Notes: generated by a model not told the origin, from the sequence alone. Counted from the stretch's first letter, positions 41,250 through 49,881 are shown. The stretch is DNA of 64,000 nucleotides from Escherichia coli O127:H6 str. E2348/69 (GCF_000026545.1 NC_011601.1); one strand, 5' to 3'. A program made the numbers and translations.

Positions 41250-44200
41250 TTACACCTTTTCCACATTCACAAGGAAGGACTTAAACTCCGGCGTCTGCGT
41301 GTTCGCATCACCGACGAATGGCGTCAACGTATTGGCAATAAAGCCTTTTTTCGCAACACCTTCATAGCCCCAGTGAATCGGAATACCGATGGTATCGATA
41401 TCTTTGCCGTTTGCTTTCAGCGTGCGAATACGTTTGGTCACTACCGCTTTGGCTTTGATATAGCCACGGTTGGAGGAGACTTTCACAGTATCGCCCTGGG
41501 CAATGCCAAGTTTATTCGCCAGCGACTCCCCGATTTCCACAAACTGCTCTGGTTGCAAAATCGCATTCAACAGCGCGTGTTTGGTCCAGTAGTGGAAGTG
41601 CTCGGTCAGACGATAGGTGGTTCCGACATACGGGAACTTATCGGCTTTACCCAATGCTTCGGCGTCGTCTTTAAAGATACGCGCAGCCGGGTTCGAGATA
41701 ACGTTTGGATGCAGCGGGTTAGTTCCCAGCGGCGTTTCAAACGGCTCGTAGTGTTCCGGGAACGGACCTTCCGCCATCTTATCGAGGGCAAACAGACGTC
41801 CCATGCCTTCCTGCTGCATGATAAACGGCCCTACGCCGCTGCCCGGAGGCGCTGCGCTGTAGTCCGGAATATCCCAGCCGGTCCACTTAGTGCCGTCCCA
41901 TTTCAGCAACTGACGCTTCGGATCCCATGGGTTACCCTGCGGATCTGCGGAGGCGCGGTTATACAGAATGCGGCGGTTTAGCGGCCATGCCCATGCCCAG
42001 CCCAGCGTGTTACCGAGGCCAGACGGATCGGCGTTATCACGACGCGCCATCTGGTTGCCTTCCGGCGTCCAGCTACCGGCGAAAATCCAGCAGCCACAGG
42101 AGGTTGTACCGTCATCGCGCAGTTGGGCGAACGAGCTAAGTTGTTGGCCTTTCTTGACGATAACCGCACCGGTTGCCGGGTCGGTAATATCGGCCAGCGC
42201 TTTGCCGTTGCTCTCCATTGCCACTTCTTCTGAAGATGGCTCATGCGGAATGGCGTAGTTCCAGGTCATGTTCAGCACCTGGTCCGGGTTCGCGCCACCC
42301 TGTTCGGCATACATCTTGCGCAAGCGCAGGAAGATACCGGAGAGGATCTCGCCATCAGTCAGCGCAATCCCCGGGGCGTCCGCACCTTTCCAGTGCCACT
42401 GTAACCAGCGACCTGAGTTAACGATAGAACCGTTCTCTTCCGCGAAGCAGGTCGATGGTAGACGGAACACTTCGGTCTGGATCTTCGACGAGTCAACTTC
42501 GTTCAGCTCACCGTGGTTCTGCCAGAAGTTAGAGGTTTCAGTGTTCAGCGGGTCGATAGTCACGAGGAATTTCAGCTTCGACAGACAGCCGATCACTTTG
42601 TTTTTGTTCGGGAATGAGGCAACAGGGTTAAAGCCCTGGCAGATATAGCCATTGACCTTGCCTTCTTTCATCATCTCGAAGTATTGCAGGACGTCGTAGC
42701 CTTTATCCCACTTCGGCAACCAGTCAAAGCCCCAGCTATTTTCCGCCGTCGCTTTATCACCAAAGAAGGCCTTCATCATAGAGACGAAGAATTTCGGGTA
42801 GTTGCCCCAGTAGTTTACCTGGCCTTCCAGCAGCGGTTTTGGCGTGTTGGCGGTAAGGTAGGTTTGCAGATCGGTCTGCTTCTCGCTTGGCAGCGTCATG
42901 TAACCTGGCAGGCTCTGCGACAGCAGCCCCAGGTCGGTCAGCCCCTGAATATTGGAGTGACCGCGCAGGGCGTTAACGCCGCCGCCAGCCATCCCCATAT
43001 TGCCGAGCAGCAACTGGATCATCGCCATCGTACGGATGTTCTGCGCACCGATGGAGTGTTGCGTCCAGCCGAGCGCGTAAAGGAACGAGGCAGTTTTATC
43101 GTGAGCACTGGTTTCGGCGATGTATTCGCAGACTTTCAGGAATGCGTCTTTTGGCGTACCACAGATGTTTTCAACCACATCTGGCGTGTAGCGGGAAACG
43201 TGCTGTTTCAGCAAGTTCCACACGCAACGTGGATGTTGCAGGGTAGTATCGCGTTTGGCGAAGCCGTTTTCGTCCAGTTCGTAAGTCCAGGTGGACTTAT
43301 CGTACTTGCGTTTTTCCGCGTCGTAGCCGGTGAACAGGCCATCTTCAAAGCCGTAATCCTCACGCACGATCAGGCTAGCGTTGGTATAGGCTTCGGTGTA
43401 TTCGCGGTTGAATTTTTCATTGTTCAGCAGGTACAGCAATACGCCTGACAGGAAAGCAATGTCAGTACCGGAACGGATAGGGGCATAGTAGTCAGCCACC
43501 GCCGCTGTACGTGTAAAGCGAGGATCGATCACAATCAGCTTCGCGCCGTTGTGAATTTTGGCTTCCATCGCCCAGCGGAACCCGACCGGGTGAGCTTCAG
43601 CGGCGTTACCGCCCATCACCACGACGAGGTTGGCATTCTTGATGTCGACCCAGTGGTTGGTCATCGCACCGCGACCAAATGTTGGAGCAAGACTTGCTAC
43701 CGTTGGTCCGTGTCAGACACGCGCCTGGTTGTCGACCGCGAGCATACCCAGCGCGCGGGAGAATTTTTGCGTTAAATAGCCGGTTTCGTTACTCGACGCG
43801 GAAGCACACAGCATCCCGGTGGAGAGCCAGCGGTTAACAGTCACGCCTTCGGCGTTTTGCGCAATGTAGTTCGCATCGCGGTCTTCTTTCATCAGTTTGG
43901 CGATGCGATCAAACGCCTCTTCCCAACTGATTTGCTGCCATTTATCAGAACCTGGCGCACGGTATTCCGGAAACTTCAGGCGGCTTTCGGAGTGGATGAA
44001 ATCCACCAGGCCAGCGCCTTTCGGACAAAGTGCTCCGCGGTTGACCGGGTGATCCGGGTCACCTTCGATATGGAAGATAGATGCTTTGGCGTTTTTTGCT
44101 CCGTCACCGAGGCTGTACATCAACAGCCCACAGCCTACGGAACAATAGGTGCAGGTATTACGGGTTTCGCGGGTGCGCAGCAGTTTATACTGCCGGGTTT

Positions 44201-44300
44201 CCGCGAGTGCTACGCTGGGTGCAAAACCCAGTGCCGCTGCCGTGGTGCCTGCCATACCGCCAGCGCAGATCTTAAAGAACTGCCTTCTGCTGACCTGCAT
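41250..44300 (-). CDS. fdoG: Formate dehydrogenase-O major subunit (selenocysteine-containing; in-frame UGA at 43713-43715)
   Basis: Two track ORFs (43713..44300 and 41250..43664) are in the same frame, separated only by a TGA; joined product is 1016 aa with a Tat signal (RRQFFK) and ends ...QARV-U-HGPTVASLAPTFG, the canonical Sec site of formate dehydrogenases. Confidence 0.93.
43670..43712 (-). promoter_or_regulatory. Predicted bacterial SECIS hairpin immediately 3' of the fdoG UGA
   Basis: mRNA sequence after the UGA (CACGGACCAACGGUAGCAAGUCUUGCUCCAACAUUUGGUCG) can form a stem-loop; position inferred from the known requirement for a SelB-binding hairpin directly downstream of Sec codons. 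Fold not computed. Confidence 0.55.
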
Positions 44301-44493: not shown

Positions 44494-45330
44494 GTGAAAA
44501 AAACACAGCAAAAAGAAATCGAGAATGTGACAAATATCACAGGTGTTCGTCAAATTGAGTTATGGCGGCGTGATGATTTACAACACCCACGGTTAGATGA
44601 GGTGGCGGAAGAAGTTCCCGTTGCGCTGGTCTACAACGGCATTTCGCATGTGGTGATGATGGCGTCGCCCAAAGACCTTGAGTACTTTGCGCTCGGTTTT
44701 TCGCTTTCCGAAGGAATTATCGAAAGCCCGCGCGATATCTTCGGCATGGATGTCGTTCCTTCCTGTAATGGCCTGGAAGTACAAATTGAGCTTTCCAGCC
44801 GCCGCTTTATGGGGTTGAAGGAACGCCGCCGGGCGCTGGCGGGACGTACGGGCTGTGGCGTATGCGGTGTAGAACAGCTTAACGATATCGGTAAACCGGT
44901 GCAGCCGCTGCCGTTCACCCAGACGTTTGATCTCAACAAACTGGATGATGCATTACGTCATCTCAATGATTTCCAGCCAGTGGGGCAACTGACTGGTTGT
45001 ACTCACGCCGCTGCATGGATGTTGCCATCTGGCGAACTGGTCGGCGGGCATGAAGACGTGGGTCGCCATGTGGCGCTGGACAAACTGTTAGGCCGCCGGT
45101 CACAAGAAGGGGAAAGCTGGCAGCAAGGTGCGGTGCTGGTTTCCAGCCGTGCCAGTTATGAAATGGTGCAAAAGTCGGCGATGTGCGGCGTAGAGATTTT
45201 GTTTGCGGTGTCTGCCGCGACCACACTTGCTGTAGAAGTGGCTGAGCGCTGTAATCTGACGCTGGTGGGCTTTTGTAAACCGGGTCGGGCAACGGTTTAT
45301 ACCCATCCGCAGCGTTTGGTTCATAATTAA
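44494..45330 (+). CDS. fdhD: Formate dehydrogenase sulfurtransferase/accessory protein FdhD
   Basis: 278-aa ORF with conserved CGVCG motif; divergently transcribed from fdoGHI-fdhE. Confidence 0.93.
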
Positions 45331-45640
45331 AGAAATACCGCAATTCTGATTCTGGATTGCGGTTTTATTTTTCTATTAAATAATCCTCAATATATTATTC
45401 AGCATTTAAATAATAATTTCACCACAATAAATTATCTCGTTAATTCCGGTTTATATCGATATACTCCGGTCGCATTAATCCTTTAAGAATTAATCATTAT
45501 TTATATAAGACATTTTGTTTTAATCATCGCGTCAATAAATAAATGTTTCTGATGAGTGAATGCAAATAACAAACCTTGCACCGGTTGTAAAAACAGCAAT
45601 GTATTTTCAATAGTGGGTGATGGATTATGAGTATTGAAAA

Positions 45641-47476
45641 ATGAGTACATTACAGTTACCTGGCAGTTCATATTCTACTGAAGTTAATTTAAACGGCTTA
45701 ATTGAGGTGCTCAGTAAGCACCTTTACTCTACCCCCGTGGTCGCCGTGCGCGAGCTGGTGCAGAACGGACACGATGCGATCGTGCGCCGCAGGATTGAGC
45801 AGCCCGATGCGCCAAAGGATAACCAAATTCGTGTGGTGGCAGACGTGGCGAAGTCCACCATCACCATTACCGATACCGGTGCGGGTTTGACAGAAAGCGA
45901 AATTCACGGCTTCCTGGCAACAGTGGGCGTGGGTTATACCCGAATGTTGCGCCAGCAGGATGACAACACCGGTTTAATTGGTATGTTCGGCCTTGGTTTC
46001 TTGTCAGCATTTGTACTTGCAAAAGAGGTCACGGTGTTGACCACATCCTGGCAAACGCCGGATCAGAGCTGGAAATACCACTCTACCGACGGGCAAAAAT
46101 ATACCGTTACGCCGCATCAGTCCTCGGAAACGGGAACGCAGGTGATTCTGACGCTCAAAGAAGAGTACAGCCATCTGGCGAGTAACAATTTGCTGAACCG
46201 CGTTCTTTCCCGCTACTGTGTATTGCTGCACGAACCGGTCTATGTCGGCGATGCCAGCGAGCCGGTAAATAAACTTCAACCACCGTGGCGTGAAGTTGCC
46301 CCCGAAGGCGTAACCATACACCGCGCGCTGGTACAGCGTAAAAATCTCGCCTTTGCCGCCCAGTTTGAATCCTCCTTCGAACCGATTTGCACCATTCCGG
46401 TGGTGCCAGCGGGAATGAGCGACGCGGTTGGGATTTTATGGATTCAGGATGGCGCGACCTACGGCACCAGCGATAACCGCAACCTGTCGTTGTTTTTGCG
46501 CGGCATGTTACTGGATGATGAAGCGCGTGAGTTGTTACCGCCCTGGGCCGGATTTATTGGCGGCGTGATTGAGTCATCGAAACTGACGCCGACGGCGAGC
46601 AGGGAAGATCTCCAGCGGGATGCAACCTGGGTTGCGGTACAGGAGGCGTTAAAAGAGGCGCTGATTTCTGGTTTGTCCGATCTCGCACAAAATCAGCCAG
46701 AAATCTGGCGGCGGGTATTAATGCGCCACAACGAAGCGTTGCTGGGTGCGGCCTTGTGTGATGACCGTCTGTTTGATTTGCTCAAAGATCGCTTGCAGGT
46801 GCCAACGTCAAAAGGGGCGCTGCTGGCGAAGGATTTACGCGTTAATAACAGCATTCATATTCTGTTAAGCCGCGACGGCGGTTTTGAAGAGATGTTGTTC
46901 CATATTCTGCAACGGCCTGTAGCCCGTGGCGATCGCTATGCGGTGGTGCCATTTTTACGCCGTTGGGCGCTGTTATATCACTGCCGGATTGTCGAAGTCG
47001 GTACGCAAACGGGTAATGAGCAGTTGTTCAGCCTGGCAGAATTACCCAAAGAGCAGGTGGCTTATCTGGAAGAGCATCTCTGCGACGGCGAGCAATTAAT
47101 TATCTCACGCTTCGAACCCGCCGTTTTACCGTTAGTGGTTACACCAGACCGCGAAGCAGAATTAAAACAAATTCTCGAACAGGATGACGCAGATAAACGC
47201 ATCAGTACCGCAGCGTTAATGCTGGCGCGGCAATTTACCTCGCAAATCCAAAAATCTAAAACTTCAAGTCTGTATATCAACCTTAATAACCCCTGTGTCA
47301 TGCAACTGGTGACGGCCTTACAACACCATCAACAGCCAGCGGCAGCATTACGGTTATTAAAATCGCTGAAAGTGATTTTGTGCTCCAGCGGTAATAAAGA
47401 ACAGCAGTGGGATTTACACCAGGCACTGGAAGATTTTACTCAGGTTATTCCTGTCTTAATTAATCAAGGAAAATAA
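45641..47476 (+). CDS. Hsp90/HtpG-family paralog (GHKL ATPase), full length
   Basis: 611-aa ORF aligning by eye with HtpG through the N-terminal ATPase domain: N-box RELVQNGHDA (HtpG RELISNASDA), G1 ITDTGAGL (ISDNGVGM), G2 LIGMFGLGFLSAF (LIGQFGVGFYSAF), and beyond. Not the housekeeping htpG (wrong locus, divergent). Confidence 0.8.
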   Translation: MSTLQLPGSSYSTEVNLNGLIEVLSKHLYSTPVVAVRELVQNGHDAIVRRRIEQPDAPKDNQIRVVADVAKSTITITDTGAGLTESEIHGFLATVGVGYTRMLRQQDDNTGLIGMFGLGFLSAFVLAKEVTVLTTSWQTPDQSWKYHSTDGQKYTVTPHQSSETGTQVILTLKEEYSHLASNNLLNRVLSRYCVLLHEPVYVGDASEPVNKLQPPWREVAPEGVTIHRALVQRKNLAFAAQFESSFEPICTIPVVPAGMSDAVGILWIQDGATYGTSDNRNLSLFLRGMLLDDEARELLPPWAGFIGGVIESSKLTPTASREDLQRDATWVAVQEALKEALISGLSDLAQNQPEIWRRVLMRHNEALLGAALCDDRLFDLLKDRLQVPTSKGALLAKDLRVNNSIHILLSRDGGFEEMLFHILQRPVARGDRYAVVPFLRRWALLYHCRIVEVGTQTGNEQLFSLAELPKEQVAYLEEHLCDGEQLIISRFEPAVLPLVVTPDREAELKQILEQDDADKRISTAALMLARQFTSQIQKSKTSSLYINLNNPCVMQLVTALQHHQQPAAALRLLKSLKVILCSSGNKEQQWDLHQALEDFTQVIPVLINQGK

Positions 47477-47477
47477 A

Positions 47478-49784
47478 ATGGATACATGGGAGTGGTACAA
47501 CAAATATAGTCAAGAGTTGCGTGATGCCGGGCAAGAATATATTCCGCAGCTTATTGATGATTTTTCAGAAAGTGTTTTGCACCTACAAATAGAAAAATGT
47601 GATTCGCTATTGCCGGAAATGAAAGCACTGAATCAAGTCGCCAAAAATCCGTGGCTGGAAATATTTATTGGTCACTGGGAAATGCGTCATCGCCTGACTA
47701 ACTATGAAGAAGGTGAAAAGGTGCTGCCAGACGTGGTAGCGCTGTTTGAAAAAGCGCATCGGGAAGAGGCGAAAGATTGCCCGCAATCTATCTGCGTTAC
47801 CCAGGATTTATCAGCCTGCTACGAAAATATTGACGCACCAGGCTGGGCGAATGAACGCATGGCGGTGTGTGAAGAAACCATCGCGCGCATTGATCCGACC
47901 TGGAGCTGTTTTCAGTGTTTGTCCACTGAATATGCCAGCGCACTGATAGATTCCAAAAGAACAGAGGAGGCACTGGCTTATCTGGATCGGCAAATCGACG
48001 CAGTTAAAGCAGCCGGGAAAGATGATATTGATCCATTACTTTATACTCGCGCCGATATTCTGATTGAACTTCAGCGTTATGATGAAGCACGCAAATTGAT
48101 TGATGAGCTGACAGAAGCCAATGATTACTGGGGCCGCGACCGCATTAGTAATCACCTAAAAAAACTGTACATCATGGCGTTATGCGGGCAGGACGAAGAA
48201 GTCTGGGAGGAATTACCGCGTTGGTCCGATCTGACTCCGCATTCATGGGGGTCATGGCTGAAAATCATTACTGTGTTACTTCCCCGTCATCCACAAAGAA
48301 ACAACTGGCAACTGGCGCGCATCATCCAGAAAATGCTGGAGCAACGTTCACAGGCCGGGGCGCATCGAAAAGTGGTTAATCTGGCAAAACTACAAATCAC
48401 CCTGGCGCTGGAGCGTGAATCCGTCTGGGTTGCCAAAATAGCGATGAAACTGGCCCAGCGACACATGCCAAAATTACGCGCGTTACTGGGCGTCGATCGC
48501 GAGTTTCTCGAACTTAGCGAAAAAATCGCCACCAAAGAAGCAGAGTTGCTTGCTCGTCCGGTTGTAGAAGTACCTGAAAATAGCGACGAAGAAACGCAGC
48601 CAGATCCAGAAAAAGACGTCGAAATATTCCGCCGCGCTTATCTGAACACACCAGACGATGCAGAGTTACTGGGCAAACTGGTCAATGCGTTAAATGCCTG
48701 TAATGCGATTAATGAGTCAATTGAACTTCTGCAACGCTATGTTGAAAGCCACCTCCATGAAGATAATGGTCTTTGCTTCGATCTGTTGGATTTATTGCTC
48801 CACCGTGACGATCTGCAAACCATTGAGCACCTGGCGAAGCAGTATGAACAGGCGGGGCTGCTACATATGGCCTTGTGGTTCCGGGCGCGAGTGATCAACC
48901 AACAGGAAGACTGGAGTGAACTGGAGTCGATTGGACAACAGTTGCTGCAAAACGAAAAAGGGCGTGAGTGGGTTGGCGTTTATCGCATGTGCTCCTGGGC
49001 AGCACAAAAACAGGAAGCCTGGGATCGACAGCTGGATTATTTACAACAATTGCAGCAACTGATGATTAGCCGTGAAGAAGATATTCGTAATCTCCAGTGG
49101 GATATCATGGCGACCGCCAGCATCCTGCAACAATGGGATTTGGTTCGTGCTATTGCTGCTGAACTGGAAATCGAACTCACGGAAGGTGAAGGTTTTATTG
49201 ACGAAAAATGGGGGCTGCTAAACATTCGCTTCCGGGAAAATTATGAATACCGCTATTACTATGCTCAACGTATTGGGCCGGTAACCGCAAGGATCATTGA
49301 GCCAACTTACCGGACCGATTATCCGCAACATGTTGATGAGGTTGTGGTATTCGATGCAGAAATGTTGAATACCCGACCAGAGGATGAGGAAGAGCAGAAG
49401 AATTTCACTCCGCTTTATGGGTGCCTGAAAACCATTATCCCGACCGAATACGGCGAGTCCTGGTTCTGCGAAGGTGTCATGCCTGGTGAAGAAGAGTTTA
49501 ATACTTTCCGTGAGGCGCTCCGTGAACGAAACTGGTACTACTGGAGCAACAGTAATGACGACTATACGTTAACGGACAGTCATCAAGGAGAAGGCGCTGA
49601 GCCGCTGTCTGCATTCTATTTTGTTATCAGTGCGCCGCGTTCAGTTTCTAAAGGTGATATCGACAAGACCTTGCACGAATTGACCGCTGACTGGAAACAT
49701 CCGTTGTGCTGGTGGCGTCTTGCCAAAGAAGCCGGGGCGAATGAAGAGAAACATGCTGCTATTGCCGAGAGATATGGAATGTAA
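47478..49784 (+). CDS. Large hypothetical protein (768 aa), predicted alpha-helical/TPR-like with Cys cluster; translationally coupled to the Hsp90 paralog
   Basis: ATG 1 nt after the upstream stop, with an AAGGAAAA Shine-Dalgarno inside the upstream gene; helix-rich composition, Cys-rich stretch (DCPQSIC...SACYEN...AVCEET...WSCFQC), acidic segment (PENSDEETQPDPEKD); no catalytic motif recognised by eye. Confidence 0.6.
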   Translation: MDTWEWYNKYSQELRDAGQEYIPQLIDDFSESVLHLQIEKCDSLLPEMKALNQVAKNPWLEIFIGHWEMRHRLTNYEEGEKVLPDVVALFEKAHREEAKDCPQSICVTQDLSACYENIDAPGWANERMAVCEETIARIDPTWSCFQCLSTEYASALIDSKRTEEALAYLDRQIDAVKAAGKDDIDPLLYTRADILIELQRYDEARKLIDELTEANDYWGRDRISNHLKKLYIMALCGQDEEVWEELPRWSDLTPHSWGSWLKIITVLLPRHPQRNNWQLARIIQKMLEQRSQAGAHRKVVNLAKLQITLALERESVWVAKIAMKLAQRHMPKLRALLGVDREFLELSEKIATKEAELLARPVVEVPENSDEETQPDPEKDVEIFRRAYLNTPDDAELLGKLVNALNACNAINESIELLQRYVESHLHEDNGLCFDLLDLLLHRDDLQTIEHLAKQYEQAGLLHMALWFRARVINQQEDWSELESIGQQLLQNEKGREWVGVYRMCSWAAQKQEAWDRQLDYLQQLQQLMISREEDIRNLQWDIMATASILQQWDLVRAIAAELEIELTEGEGFIDEKWGLLNIRFRENYEYRYYYAQRIGPVTARIIEPTYRTDYPQHVDEVVVFDAEMLNTRPEDEEEQKNFTPLYGCLKTIIPTEYGESWFCEGVMPGEEEFNTFREALRERNWYYWSNSNDDYTLTDSHQGEGAEPLSAFYFVISAPRSVSKGDIDKTLHELTADWKHPLCWWRLAKEAGANEEKHAAIAERYGM

Positions 49785-49881
49785 GCGGCACTAACGTTTG
49801 TCCGACTCTGGTGTAGCTGAACGGTGAAATCCCAGGTCGGACAACAAACCGTACTAACGGGGGGCCCAAAAATTGTGTCTC

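Follow-up and report, generated by a model that had tools for sequence, protein, structure and literature searches.

To our knowledge, reviews of Hsp90 describe the bacterial protein as working without dedicated co-chaperones and treat the network of tetratricopeptide repeat (TPR) co-chaperones as eukaryotic. We know of no dedicated partner for the housekeeping bacterial Hsp90, HtpG, and none was found in the literature searched. In eukaryotes, the Hsp90 ATPase is paired with proteins such as Hop/Sti1, Tah1, CHIP, UNC-45, Sgt1, and Tom70, which combine a TPR-like solenoid with a specific domain and act as adaptors that deliver clients or regulatory input to Hsp90. Here, we describe a two-gene locus in a 64,000-nucleotide stretch of Escherichia coli O127:H6 str. 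E2348/69 (NC_011601.1; hereafter the window, which matched E2348/69 with 100% identity). The first gene (A) encodes a divergent Hsp90-type ATPase of 611 amino acids, and the second (B) encodes a TPR protein of 768 amino acids. We read the pair, at about even odds, as a dedicated, chromosomally inherited Hsp90-plus-adaptor module, and favor this over a role in defense.

Phylogenetic work (Chen et al., 2006, PMC1525184) indicated that an additional, highly divergent Hsp90 may occur in bacteria (HtpG groups B and C), and the passages of that study that were searched make no mention of a partner gene for deep Hsp90 paralogs. In MoxR-vWA systems, the gene for a chaperone-type ATPase adjoins that for a dedicated partner that binds proteins, and the two are conserved together (Kaur et al., 2020, PMC7159879). 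The A–B pair differs from MoxR-vWA in the type of ATPase (GHKL/Hsp90 vs. AAA+) and of partner (TPR solenoid vs. vWA); moreover, MoxR-vWA systems show variable effector domains and conflict contexts, whereas A–B shows a fixed architecture and housekeeping neighbors. Divergent second Hsp90 copies in bacteria are thus already known, and what appears to be new at this locus is that the partner of an Hsp90 is fixed and encoded in the same operon.

Gene A Encodes a Divergent Hsp90-Type ATPase

The A protein contains the complete motif set of Hsp90-type GHKL ATPases, namely the N-box RELVQNGHDA, the G1 motif ITDTGAGL, and the G2 motif LIGMFGLGFLSAF (LIGMFGLGF), which conform to the GHKL/Bergerat signatures E-x-x-x-N-x-x-D, D-x-G-x-G, and G-x-x-G-x-G. 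Pfam searches detected HATPase_c_3 at residues 32–174 (2.9e-9) and HSP90 at residues 274–353 (1.3e-7), and the closest solved structures were TRAP1 (2e-30) and E. coli HtpG (1e-27), both over residues ~10–359. When a profile of 27 A-family members was aligned with K-12 HtpG using hhalign, the match had 99.8% probability and 26% identity, with A residues 17–396 corresponding to HtpG residues 13–413. Residues E38, N42, D45, D78, G80, G82, G114, G117, G119, and R321 were invariant across the 27 members. The catalytic arginine of the Hsp90 middle domain is R380 in yeast and lies in a '...SRE.LQ' motif; the corresponding Arg321 of A lies within 'TASRE', and the A segment 'PTASREDLQ' is matched in the alignments by 'LNLSRELLQ' in TRAP1 and 'LNVSREILQ' in HtpG.

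A therefore resembles HtpG and TRAP1 in having a GHKL domain with the catalytic Glu and a middle domain with the catalytic Arg. It is collinear with HtpG over ~380 residues and similar in length (611 vs. 624 amino acids), but differs in the low identity given above, in its ~215 C-terminal residues, and in always being encoded with a partner gene. The C-terminal residues are not detectably related to HtpG; they are well conserved inside the A family and specific to it. Of 5426 complete E. coli genomes, 5424 have canonical htpG, so A represents an extra Hsp90 copy, that is, a paralog.

We compared A and six homologs from other genera with two curated equivalog models. The HtpG model NF003555 (cut-off, 371 bits) scored A at 198 bits and the homologs at 161–192 bits. 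NF010683 (PRK14083, 'HSP90 family protein'; cut-off, 455 bits) is the nearest named family and represents deep bacterial Hsp90 paralogs; A residues 13–571 align to it, nearly the full length of the protein, yet A scored 288 bits and the homologs 267–292 bits. Since all seven members tested scored below both cut-offs, the A family falls outside both curated Hsp90 families, and by these profile scores it is a clade separate from NF010683. A homolog search aimed at true NF010683-type Hsp90s returned A-family members alone. Some database records label A homologs 'Hsp90xo' or 'heat shock protein (Hsp90-family)'. Judged by its conserved residues and domain matches, A is a real Hsp90-type ATPase distinct from HtpG, in agreement with the original prediction, which had recognized the GHKL/Hsp90 motifs and set the gene apart from housekeeping htpG.

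Gene B Encodes a Two-Solenoid Protein with a Conserved Cysteine Cluster

Searches with B yielded no PADLOC, NCBIfam, or PHROG family match, and its Pfam matches were weak and generic to TPRs. The B family comprises ~430 clusters at 50% identity, for which neither Pfam nor NCBIfam holds a model. Full-length homologs measure ~750–830 amino acids, with identities ranging from 94% down to 28%. TPR repeats, one feature of Hsp90 TPR-clamp co-chaperones, are present in B. An AlphaFold model built from 41 sequences (predicted local distance difference test score, 91.7; predicted template modeling score, 0.77) suggested an N-terminal helical solenoid (residues 1–360), a disordered linker (361–376), a TPR solenoid (377–562), and a C-terminal α/β domain (575–768). 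The closest folds were those of the ligand-sensing regulators MalT (domain III), AimR, Rap, NprR, and PlcR. A profile of the C-terminal α/β domain matched 430 of 1.84 billion cluster representatives, and the best 150 of these 430 were proteins of ~730–800 amino acids carrying the domain at the C-terminus, or shorter fragments. By these comparisons, the architecture of B is fixed, and its C-terminal domain is seen in the B family alone. No recognizable catalytic, toxin, or effector domain (nuclease, NADase, or pore) was found among the matches inspected.

The best-conserved part of B, residues 95–155, contains four cysteines in two close pairs, C101-P-Q-S-x-C106 and C144-x-x-C147, which were invariant in the first B alignment. 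Of 111 full-length proteins collected independently by means of the C-terminal domain, 106 also had the motif. In the model, both pairs are located at the N-terminal ends of two consecutive solenoid helices, and the cluster may constitute a zinc or redox site. In Hsp33, a four-cysteine zinc center controls chaperone activity. The paired arrangement in B (CX4C ... CXXC) recalls this center as a lead only, as Hsp33 has no sequence or fold relation to B, in which the cysteines lie at helix N-termini within a solenoid.

A and B Are Linked and Co-Evolve

In E2348/69, A and B lie on the same strand between fdhD and the convergent frvR. At their junction (...CAAGGAAAATAAAATGG), the A stop codon TAA (47474-47476) is followed by one spacer base (47477) and the B start codon ATG (47478-47480). 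Both open reading frames were recovered with the predicted lengths, and the junction sequence confirmed the predicted 1-nt spacing and the position of the B Shine-Dalgarno sequence inside A. Across homologous loci, the distance between the two genes ranged from -4 to +166 nt.

The pair was found in 254 of 5426 complete E. coli genomes (4.7%), in every case as a single chromosomal copy beside fdhD. All 254 matches covered at least 80% of the two-gene query, and no genome had one gene alone, so the co-occurrence that the original prediction had proposed to check was seen in 254 of 254 carriers. Beyond E. coli, six distinct contexts obtained from distant B homologs (Cronobacter, P. aeruginosa, Xanthomonas, a Nannocystaceae genome, and two metagenome lineages) all had an Hsp90-like gene 5' of B. 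We then scanned GTDB with one genome per species, which gave a B relative in 200 species, and 80 loci were kept. These loci were found through two peptide patterns, one of which was CPQS[VI]C, so that the set is biased towards motif retention, with no effect on the linkage result. Of the 76 loci whose upstream sequence was long enough, tblastn searches placed A immediately 5' of B, in the same orientation, in 75.

The distances between genomes calculated for A correlated with those for B (r = 0.92; 351 pairs), with B diverging 1.4 times faster. Between E2348/69 and Ecol_448, the ratio of nonsynonymous to synonymous substitution rates (dN/dS) was 0.053 for A and 0.089 for B, and dS was 0.15 for A and 0.43 for B, as against 0.015 for the adjacent fdhD. 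Because dS is high relative to fdhD while dN/dS is low, the A and B alleles are old or were imported by recombination, and are still tightly constrained. The linkage, distance, and substitution data describe A–B as an ancient single unit with near-obligate linkage and strong purifying selection on both genes. Along positions 44494-49784, compared with Ecol_448 (L002), dS jumps among fdhD, A, and B, and identity in the 310-bp intergenic region is 97%, a mosaic suggestive of recombination breakpoints within the A–B cassette.

Distribution and Chromosomal Inheritance

The hosts of A–B span at least five phyla. They include Enterobacterales, Pseudomonas aeruginosa, Xanthomonadales, several Betaproteobacteria, an alphaproteobacterial metagenome-assembled genome (MAG), Holophaga (Acidobacteriota), a Chloroflexi MAG, Kitasatospora and other Actinomycetota, and Myxococcota. 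In the contexts inspected, the neighbors were ordinary chromosomal or housekeeping genes that differed from genus to genus. Comparison of one reference Xanthomonas species with 20 others (21 in all) showed synteny on both sides of the pair: 68%–100% of the upstream 6 kb aligned, as did 74%–99% of the downstream 7.6 kb. In Cronobacter (L004-L006 4894-5596), A–B comes shortly after two tandem hok/gef-family toxin genes, with a dynamin-like GTPase gene and a YjcZ gene 3 kb beyond; such neighbors were not seen in other genera.

An fdhD–A–B order also occurs in Escherichia sp., E. whittamii, and Superficieibacter; in Salmonella Infantis, three small genes separate fdhD from the pair downstream of it. 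The other carriers inspected have the order fdhD / A B / yiiG / frvR. In K-12, yiiG alone is located between fdhD and frvR, as the original prediction had stated, with an fdhD–yiiG gap of 152 bp, and most E. coli genomes have either a contiguous fdhD–yiiG junction or a divergent yiiG allele. The proposal that A–B replaces yiiG thus holds for E2348/69 only, given that other carriers keep yiiG after the pair. The 97-bp B–frvR spacer of E2348/69 is unrelated to the B–yiiG and yiiG–frvR spacers of other carriers, and this sequence (49785-49881) stands where other carriers have ~1.36 kb including yiiG (L002 10455-11818). By this comparison, E2348/69 has additionally lost yiiG, and the spacer marks the loss. 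The proposed variable slot stood insofar as the pair is strain-variable in E. coli; the locus does not look like an entry site for mobile cargo, the position next to fdhD being shared with other Escherichia and Superficieibacter.

Neither plasmid nor phage carriage was evident. Among 72,556 plasmid records, B had three matches, all of chromosomal character: two were on very large replicons (847 kb and 11.85 Mb), and the third was on a Xanthomonas record of 29 kb with radA and chromosomal synteny. This leaves no genuine plasmid copy. The single 'phage' match was a Salmonella Infantis whole-genome contig, and B was absent from 2.9 million viral contigs. As plasmid, phage, and viral-contig matches were absent or chromosomal-like, we rejected the pair as mobile cargo. 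These distributions suggest that A–B is not the cargo of an integration hotspot but an ancestral chromosomal unit that most E. coli have lost. Two of the records look misfiled: AFYI01000005.1 (L097), filed as phage, is the 156-kb Salmonella Infantis contig, and NZ_CP034650.1 (L098), filed as plasmid pXVH29 of Xanthomonas vasicola (29 kb), has radA and the chromosomal gene order of other Xanthomonas.

Several further observations concern the fdhD–yiiG region. The K-12 fdhD–yiiG junction is full-length in 3640 of 5426 genomes, and ~1780 genomes match only as far as the yiiG start; the latter carry a divergent 'DUF3829 / YiiG family' allele, making yiiG strongly dimorphic in E. coli. The fdhD C-terminus reads ...PQRLVHN in carriers and ...PQRLSN in K-12. 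A degenerate copy of the fdhD 3' end (28/36 nt) follows the B stop codon in Ecol_448 (L015 2830-2858; L002 5976-6001, 10491-10526), and K-12 weakly resembles the left copy joined to the right, as if a deletion between short direct repeats had emptied the site. A direct repeat flanking the 4.5-kb segment is tentative, being hinted at by pairwise alignment and not recovered by the repeat finder.

Homologs in Pseudomonas aeruginosa

The P. aeruginosa B cluster contains 2871 member sequences, and the pair is present in strain PA7. Based on synteny with branched-chain amino-acid transporter and flgB genes (L007), the PAO1 counterparts of A and B are PA1068 and PA1069. The PA1069 protein has been detected in P. 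aeruginosa, and the gene appears to be operonic with an Hsp90 gene (PMC4053335). Single table entries report that PA1069 is activated by AmrZ, with a chromatin immunoprecipitation (ChIP) peak (PMC3946381), that it is linked to calcium and biofilm growth (PMC4053335), and that it was recovered in a pull-down with BatR, a biofilm protein (PMC13411936); these mentions are hints and not functional tests. Apart from such omics entries and the operonic remark, the literature searched, which spans few subscription journals, contained no description of the A–B pair.

Proposed Function and Alternative Explanations

In the mechanism that we propose, A would act as an ATP-hydrolyzing Hsp90-type clamp alongside housekeeping HtpG, and B, produced from the same mRNA through coupled translation, would be its dedicated partner. 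The two TPR-like solenoids of B would form a scaffold that binds A, a specific client, or both. The four-cysteine site (probably zinc-binding and possibly redox-sensitive) and the unique C-terminal domain would give B its specificity or regulation, and ATP turnover by A would remodel B or its cargo. ATP hydrolysis and chaperone activity of A are predicted; metal binding by the B cysteines, the nature of the client, and the cellular role are what we infer.

The resemblance of B to eukaryotic TPR adaptors of Hsp90 is at the level of functional analogy, not homology: B matches generic TPRs only, and the pairing with A is fixed in an operon. In addition, A has no EEVD-type tail. The last 25 residues of 29 A homologs were variable and lacked an EEVD-like acidic terminal motif, and the classical TPR-clamp/EEVD binding mode was rejected on this ground.

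The variable tail is one of several points that weigh against an Hsp90-plus-adaptor module. Profile searches and hhalign end at residues ~356–396 of A, with no similarity to the Hsp90 C-terminal dimerization domain beyond, so that dimer formation by A, whose C-terminus is without detectable similarity to that domain, is an assumption. We infer physical binding of A and B from linkage, distance correlation, and coupled translation. Neither a third conserved gene nor a client gene was found next to A–B across the contexts inspected. Thorsellia anophelis, the lone exception among the 76 GTDB loci, has B without an adjacent A. The patchy occurrence across phyla, together with the presence in 4.7% of E. 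coli genomes, fits an accessory function and is compatible with a conflict role. In P. aeruginosa, PA1069 is down ~fourfold at 46 °C (PMC4957987), and A–B is therefore not a heat-shock module in this species. As a separate observation on T. anophelis (L078 1266-7061), genes resembling those for phosphoribosyl pyrophosphate synthase and nicotinate phosphoribosyltransferase lie 5' of B, with a gap of 850 bp.

B might instead be an obligate client with an activity of its own that needs a private Hsp90 for folding or activation, A having no other role. The linkage, co-evolution, and coupling data are the same for this explanation as for an adaptor, and B is a large, three-domain protein with a metal-type cysteine cluster, the kind of protein that often needs assisted maturation; the lack of a third conserved gene in the contexts inspected would fit as well. 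We nevertheless regard it as unlikely, because coupling leads to ~1:1 synthesis, an uncommon ratio between a substrate and a chaperone that works catalytically, because no enzymatic signature was seen in B, and because solenoid/TPR proteins are usually binders. The client-only explanation overlaps the adaptor reading, and sequence alone cannot separate the two.

We also considered an anti-phage or abortive-infection system, in which A would be a GHKL switch and B a sensor or effector for a phage protein. Tiamat (TmtA) and GHKL/MORC-type defense ATPases have the Bergerat fold in common with A. In PADLOC-DB v2, the A N-terminus weakly matched TmtA (E = 5e-6 to 4e-3) and a type II restriction enzyme, the TmtA matches covering ~100 residues out of profiles 1300–1800 positions long; A differs in carrying an Hsp90 middle domain, and B is without any match. 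PADLOC gave 0 matches for B and GHKL-level noise for A, and PHROGs gave nothing for B, so that a known defense system was rejected. The strain-variable presence in E. coli (254/5426), the patchiness across phyla, the AT-rich region 5' of A, and alleles far more divergent than fdhD (dS 0.43 vs. 0.015) would all suit a defense role, whereas the fixed domain architecture without shuffling, the absence from genuine plasmids, phages, and viral contigs, the housekeeping neighbors that vary by genus in the contexts inspected, the stable locus across Xanthomonas species, and dN/dS values of 0.05–0.09 argue against one. Among the general hallmarks of defense systems, variable presence in E. coli alone fits; location in islands or mobile elements and modular effectors were not seen among the contexts and matches inspected. 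The four RefSeq accessions of the pair were found neither in the DefensePredictor paper nor in the parts of its supplements searched. Because B has neither a match to an anti-phage model nor a recognizable effector domain, the Hsp90-plus-adaptor module is the best reading, and we consider a defense role improbable.

Signaling is a poorer candidate still: B, with its solenoids, cysteines, and ACT-like C-terminal domain, would sense a small molecule, a peptide, or the redox state, and A would be a GHKL switch acting, for example, on biofilm regulation, which would suit the ligand-sensing regulators among the fold matches of B and the AmrZ, calcium/biofilm, and BatR entries for PA1069, but no DNA-binding, kinase-acceptor, receiver, or nucleotide-cyclase output domain was seen in A or B, A carries an Hsp90 middle domain and not a histidine-kinase dimerization domain, and the omics mentions are single table entries, making this explanation very doubtful.

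Of the two hypotheses put forward originally, the chaperone-plus-partner module is therefore favored, and the defense module is disfavored by the lack of an effector, of mobility, and by synteny and purifying selection. The partner did prove to belong to no recognized family beyond generic TPRs, and the pair to no named anti-phage system. None of the findings named in advance as contrary to the original prediction was obtained, namely both genes in most E. coli with a characterized housekeeping role, a well-known family for the partner, or inconsistent linkage.

The Hsp90-plus-adaptor reading suggests a dedicated partner for some of the Hsp90s of bacteria, and so touches the textbook view that bacterial Hsp90 has no co-chaperones. 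More tentatively, and with less confidence than in the module itself, B would be the first dedicated partner of a bacterial Hsp90: the ancient paralog A would work only with B, which has a zinc or redox-type cysteine switch and a unique domain, and the two would make up a self-contained machine, powered by ATP and shared by lineages from Proteobacteria to Actinomycetota, for a client or signal. A near-obligate, co-evolving, cross-phylum pair would offer a simple two-gene system for the specialization of Hsp90 by a single partner and, if the reading is true, a bacterial Hsp90–TPR partnership independent of the eukaryotic EEVD-clamp system. If the defense explanation were true, an Hsp90-driven immune mechanism would likewise be new. 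The pair is testable in tractable hosts, including E. coli E2348/69, P. aeruginosa PAO1, and Xanthomonas, and provides a first handle on the B family.

Features of the Locus

The features of the A–B locus are listed in Table 1. Because fdhD ends in its own hairpin and T-run terminator, A–B forms its own transcription unit.

Table 1. Positions of A, B, and associated features, counted from the first nucleotide of the window.
Feature	Position	Strand	Description
fdhD intrinsic terminator	45337..45373	+	10-bp stem ACCGCAATTC...GGATTGCGGT, then T run; from terminator scan and sequence
AT-rich region 5' of A	45331..45640	+	28% GC; presumed promoter/regulatory region
Five-codon upstream open reading frame (uORF)	45627..45644	+	ATG AGT ATT GAA AAA TGA; stop overlaps A start (ATGA); read from sequence
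Gene A	45641..47476	+	611 amino acids; divergent Hsp90 paralog; RefSeq WP_000105780.1 'ATP-binding protein'
Shine-Dalgarno sequence for B	47466-47470	+	AAGGA; within 3' end of A, 7 nt ahead of B ATG
Gene B	47478..49784	+	768 amino acids; RefSeq WP_000382016.1 'tetratricopeptide repeat protein'
Four-cysteine cluster of B (candidate zinc or redox site)	47778..47918	+	C101-PQS-x-C106 ... C144-x-x-C147; from conservation
B–frvR spacer	49785..49881	.	97 bp; inverted repeat TTGTCCGAC 49798-49806 / GTCGGACAA 49836-49844

The AT-richness noted in the original prediction was borne out, the 310 bp 5' of A having a GC content of 28%, compared with 51% for both A and the window as a whole and 48% for B. 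Across Escherichia alleles, this region was 95–99% identical with zero indels, while the B coding DNA varied by up to 10%. Because it is better conserved than the synonymous sites of A, regulatory constraint on the region is suggested. A scan of 45331-45640 gave no match to the sigma-70 consensus on the + strand 5' of A, with counts at the shuffle expectation. An RNA thermometer or riboswitch in the AT-rich leader was rejected, as Rfam had no match at E <= 1.

The uORF was kept in all five aligned Escherichia alleles, and in Superficieibacter one extra base brings its ATG in frame with A. It may represent a leader for translational coupling or a recently shifted start. In the B–frvR spacer, the inverted repeat has 9-bp arms and a 29-nt loop.

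On the minus strand, the formate dehydrogenase-O alpha subunit gene (41250-44300) appears as two open reading frames (43713..44300 and 41250..43664) with an in-frame stop between them; such a stop is expected in this gene as the selenocysteine codon. Despite its place in the fdo operon, the gene is annotated in RefSeq as 'fdnG / formate dehydrogenase-N subunit alpha'.

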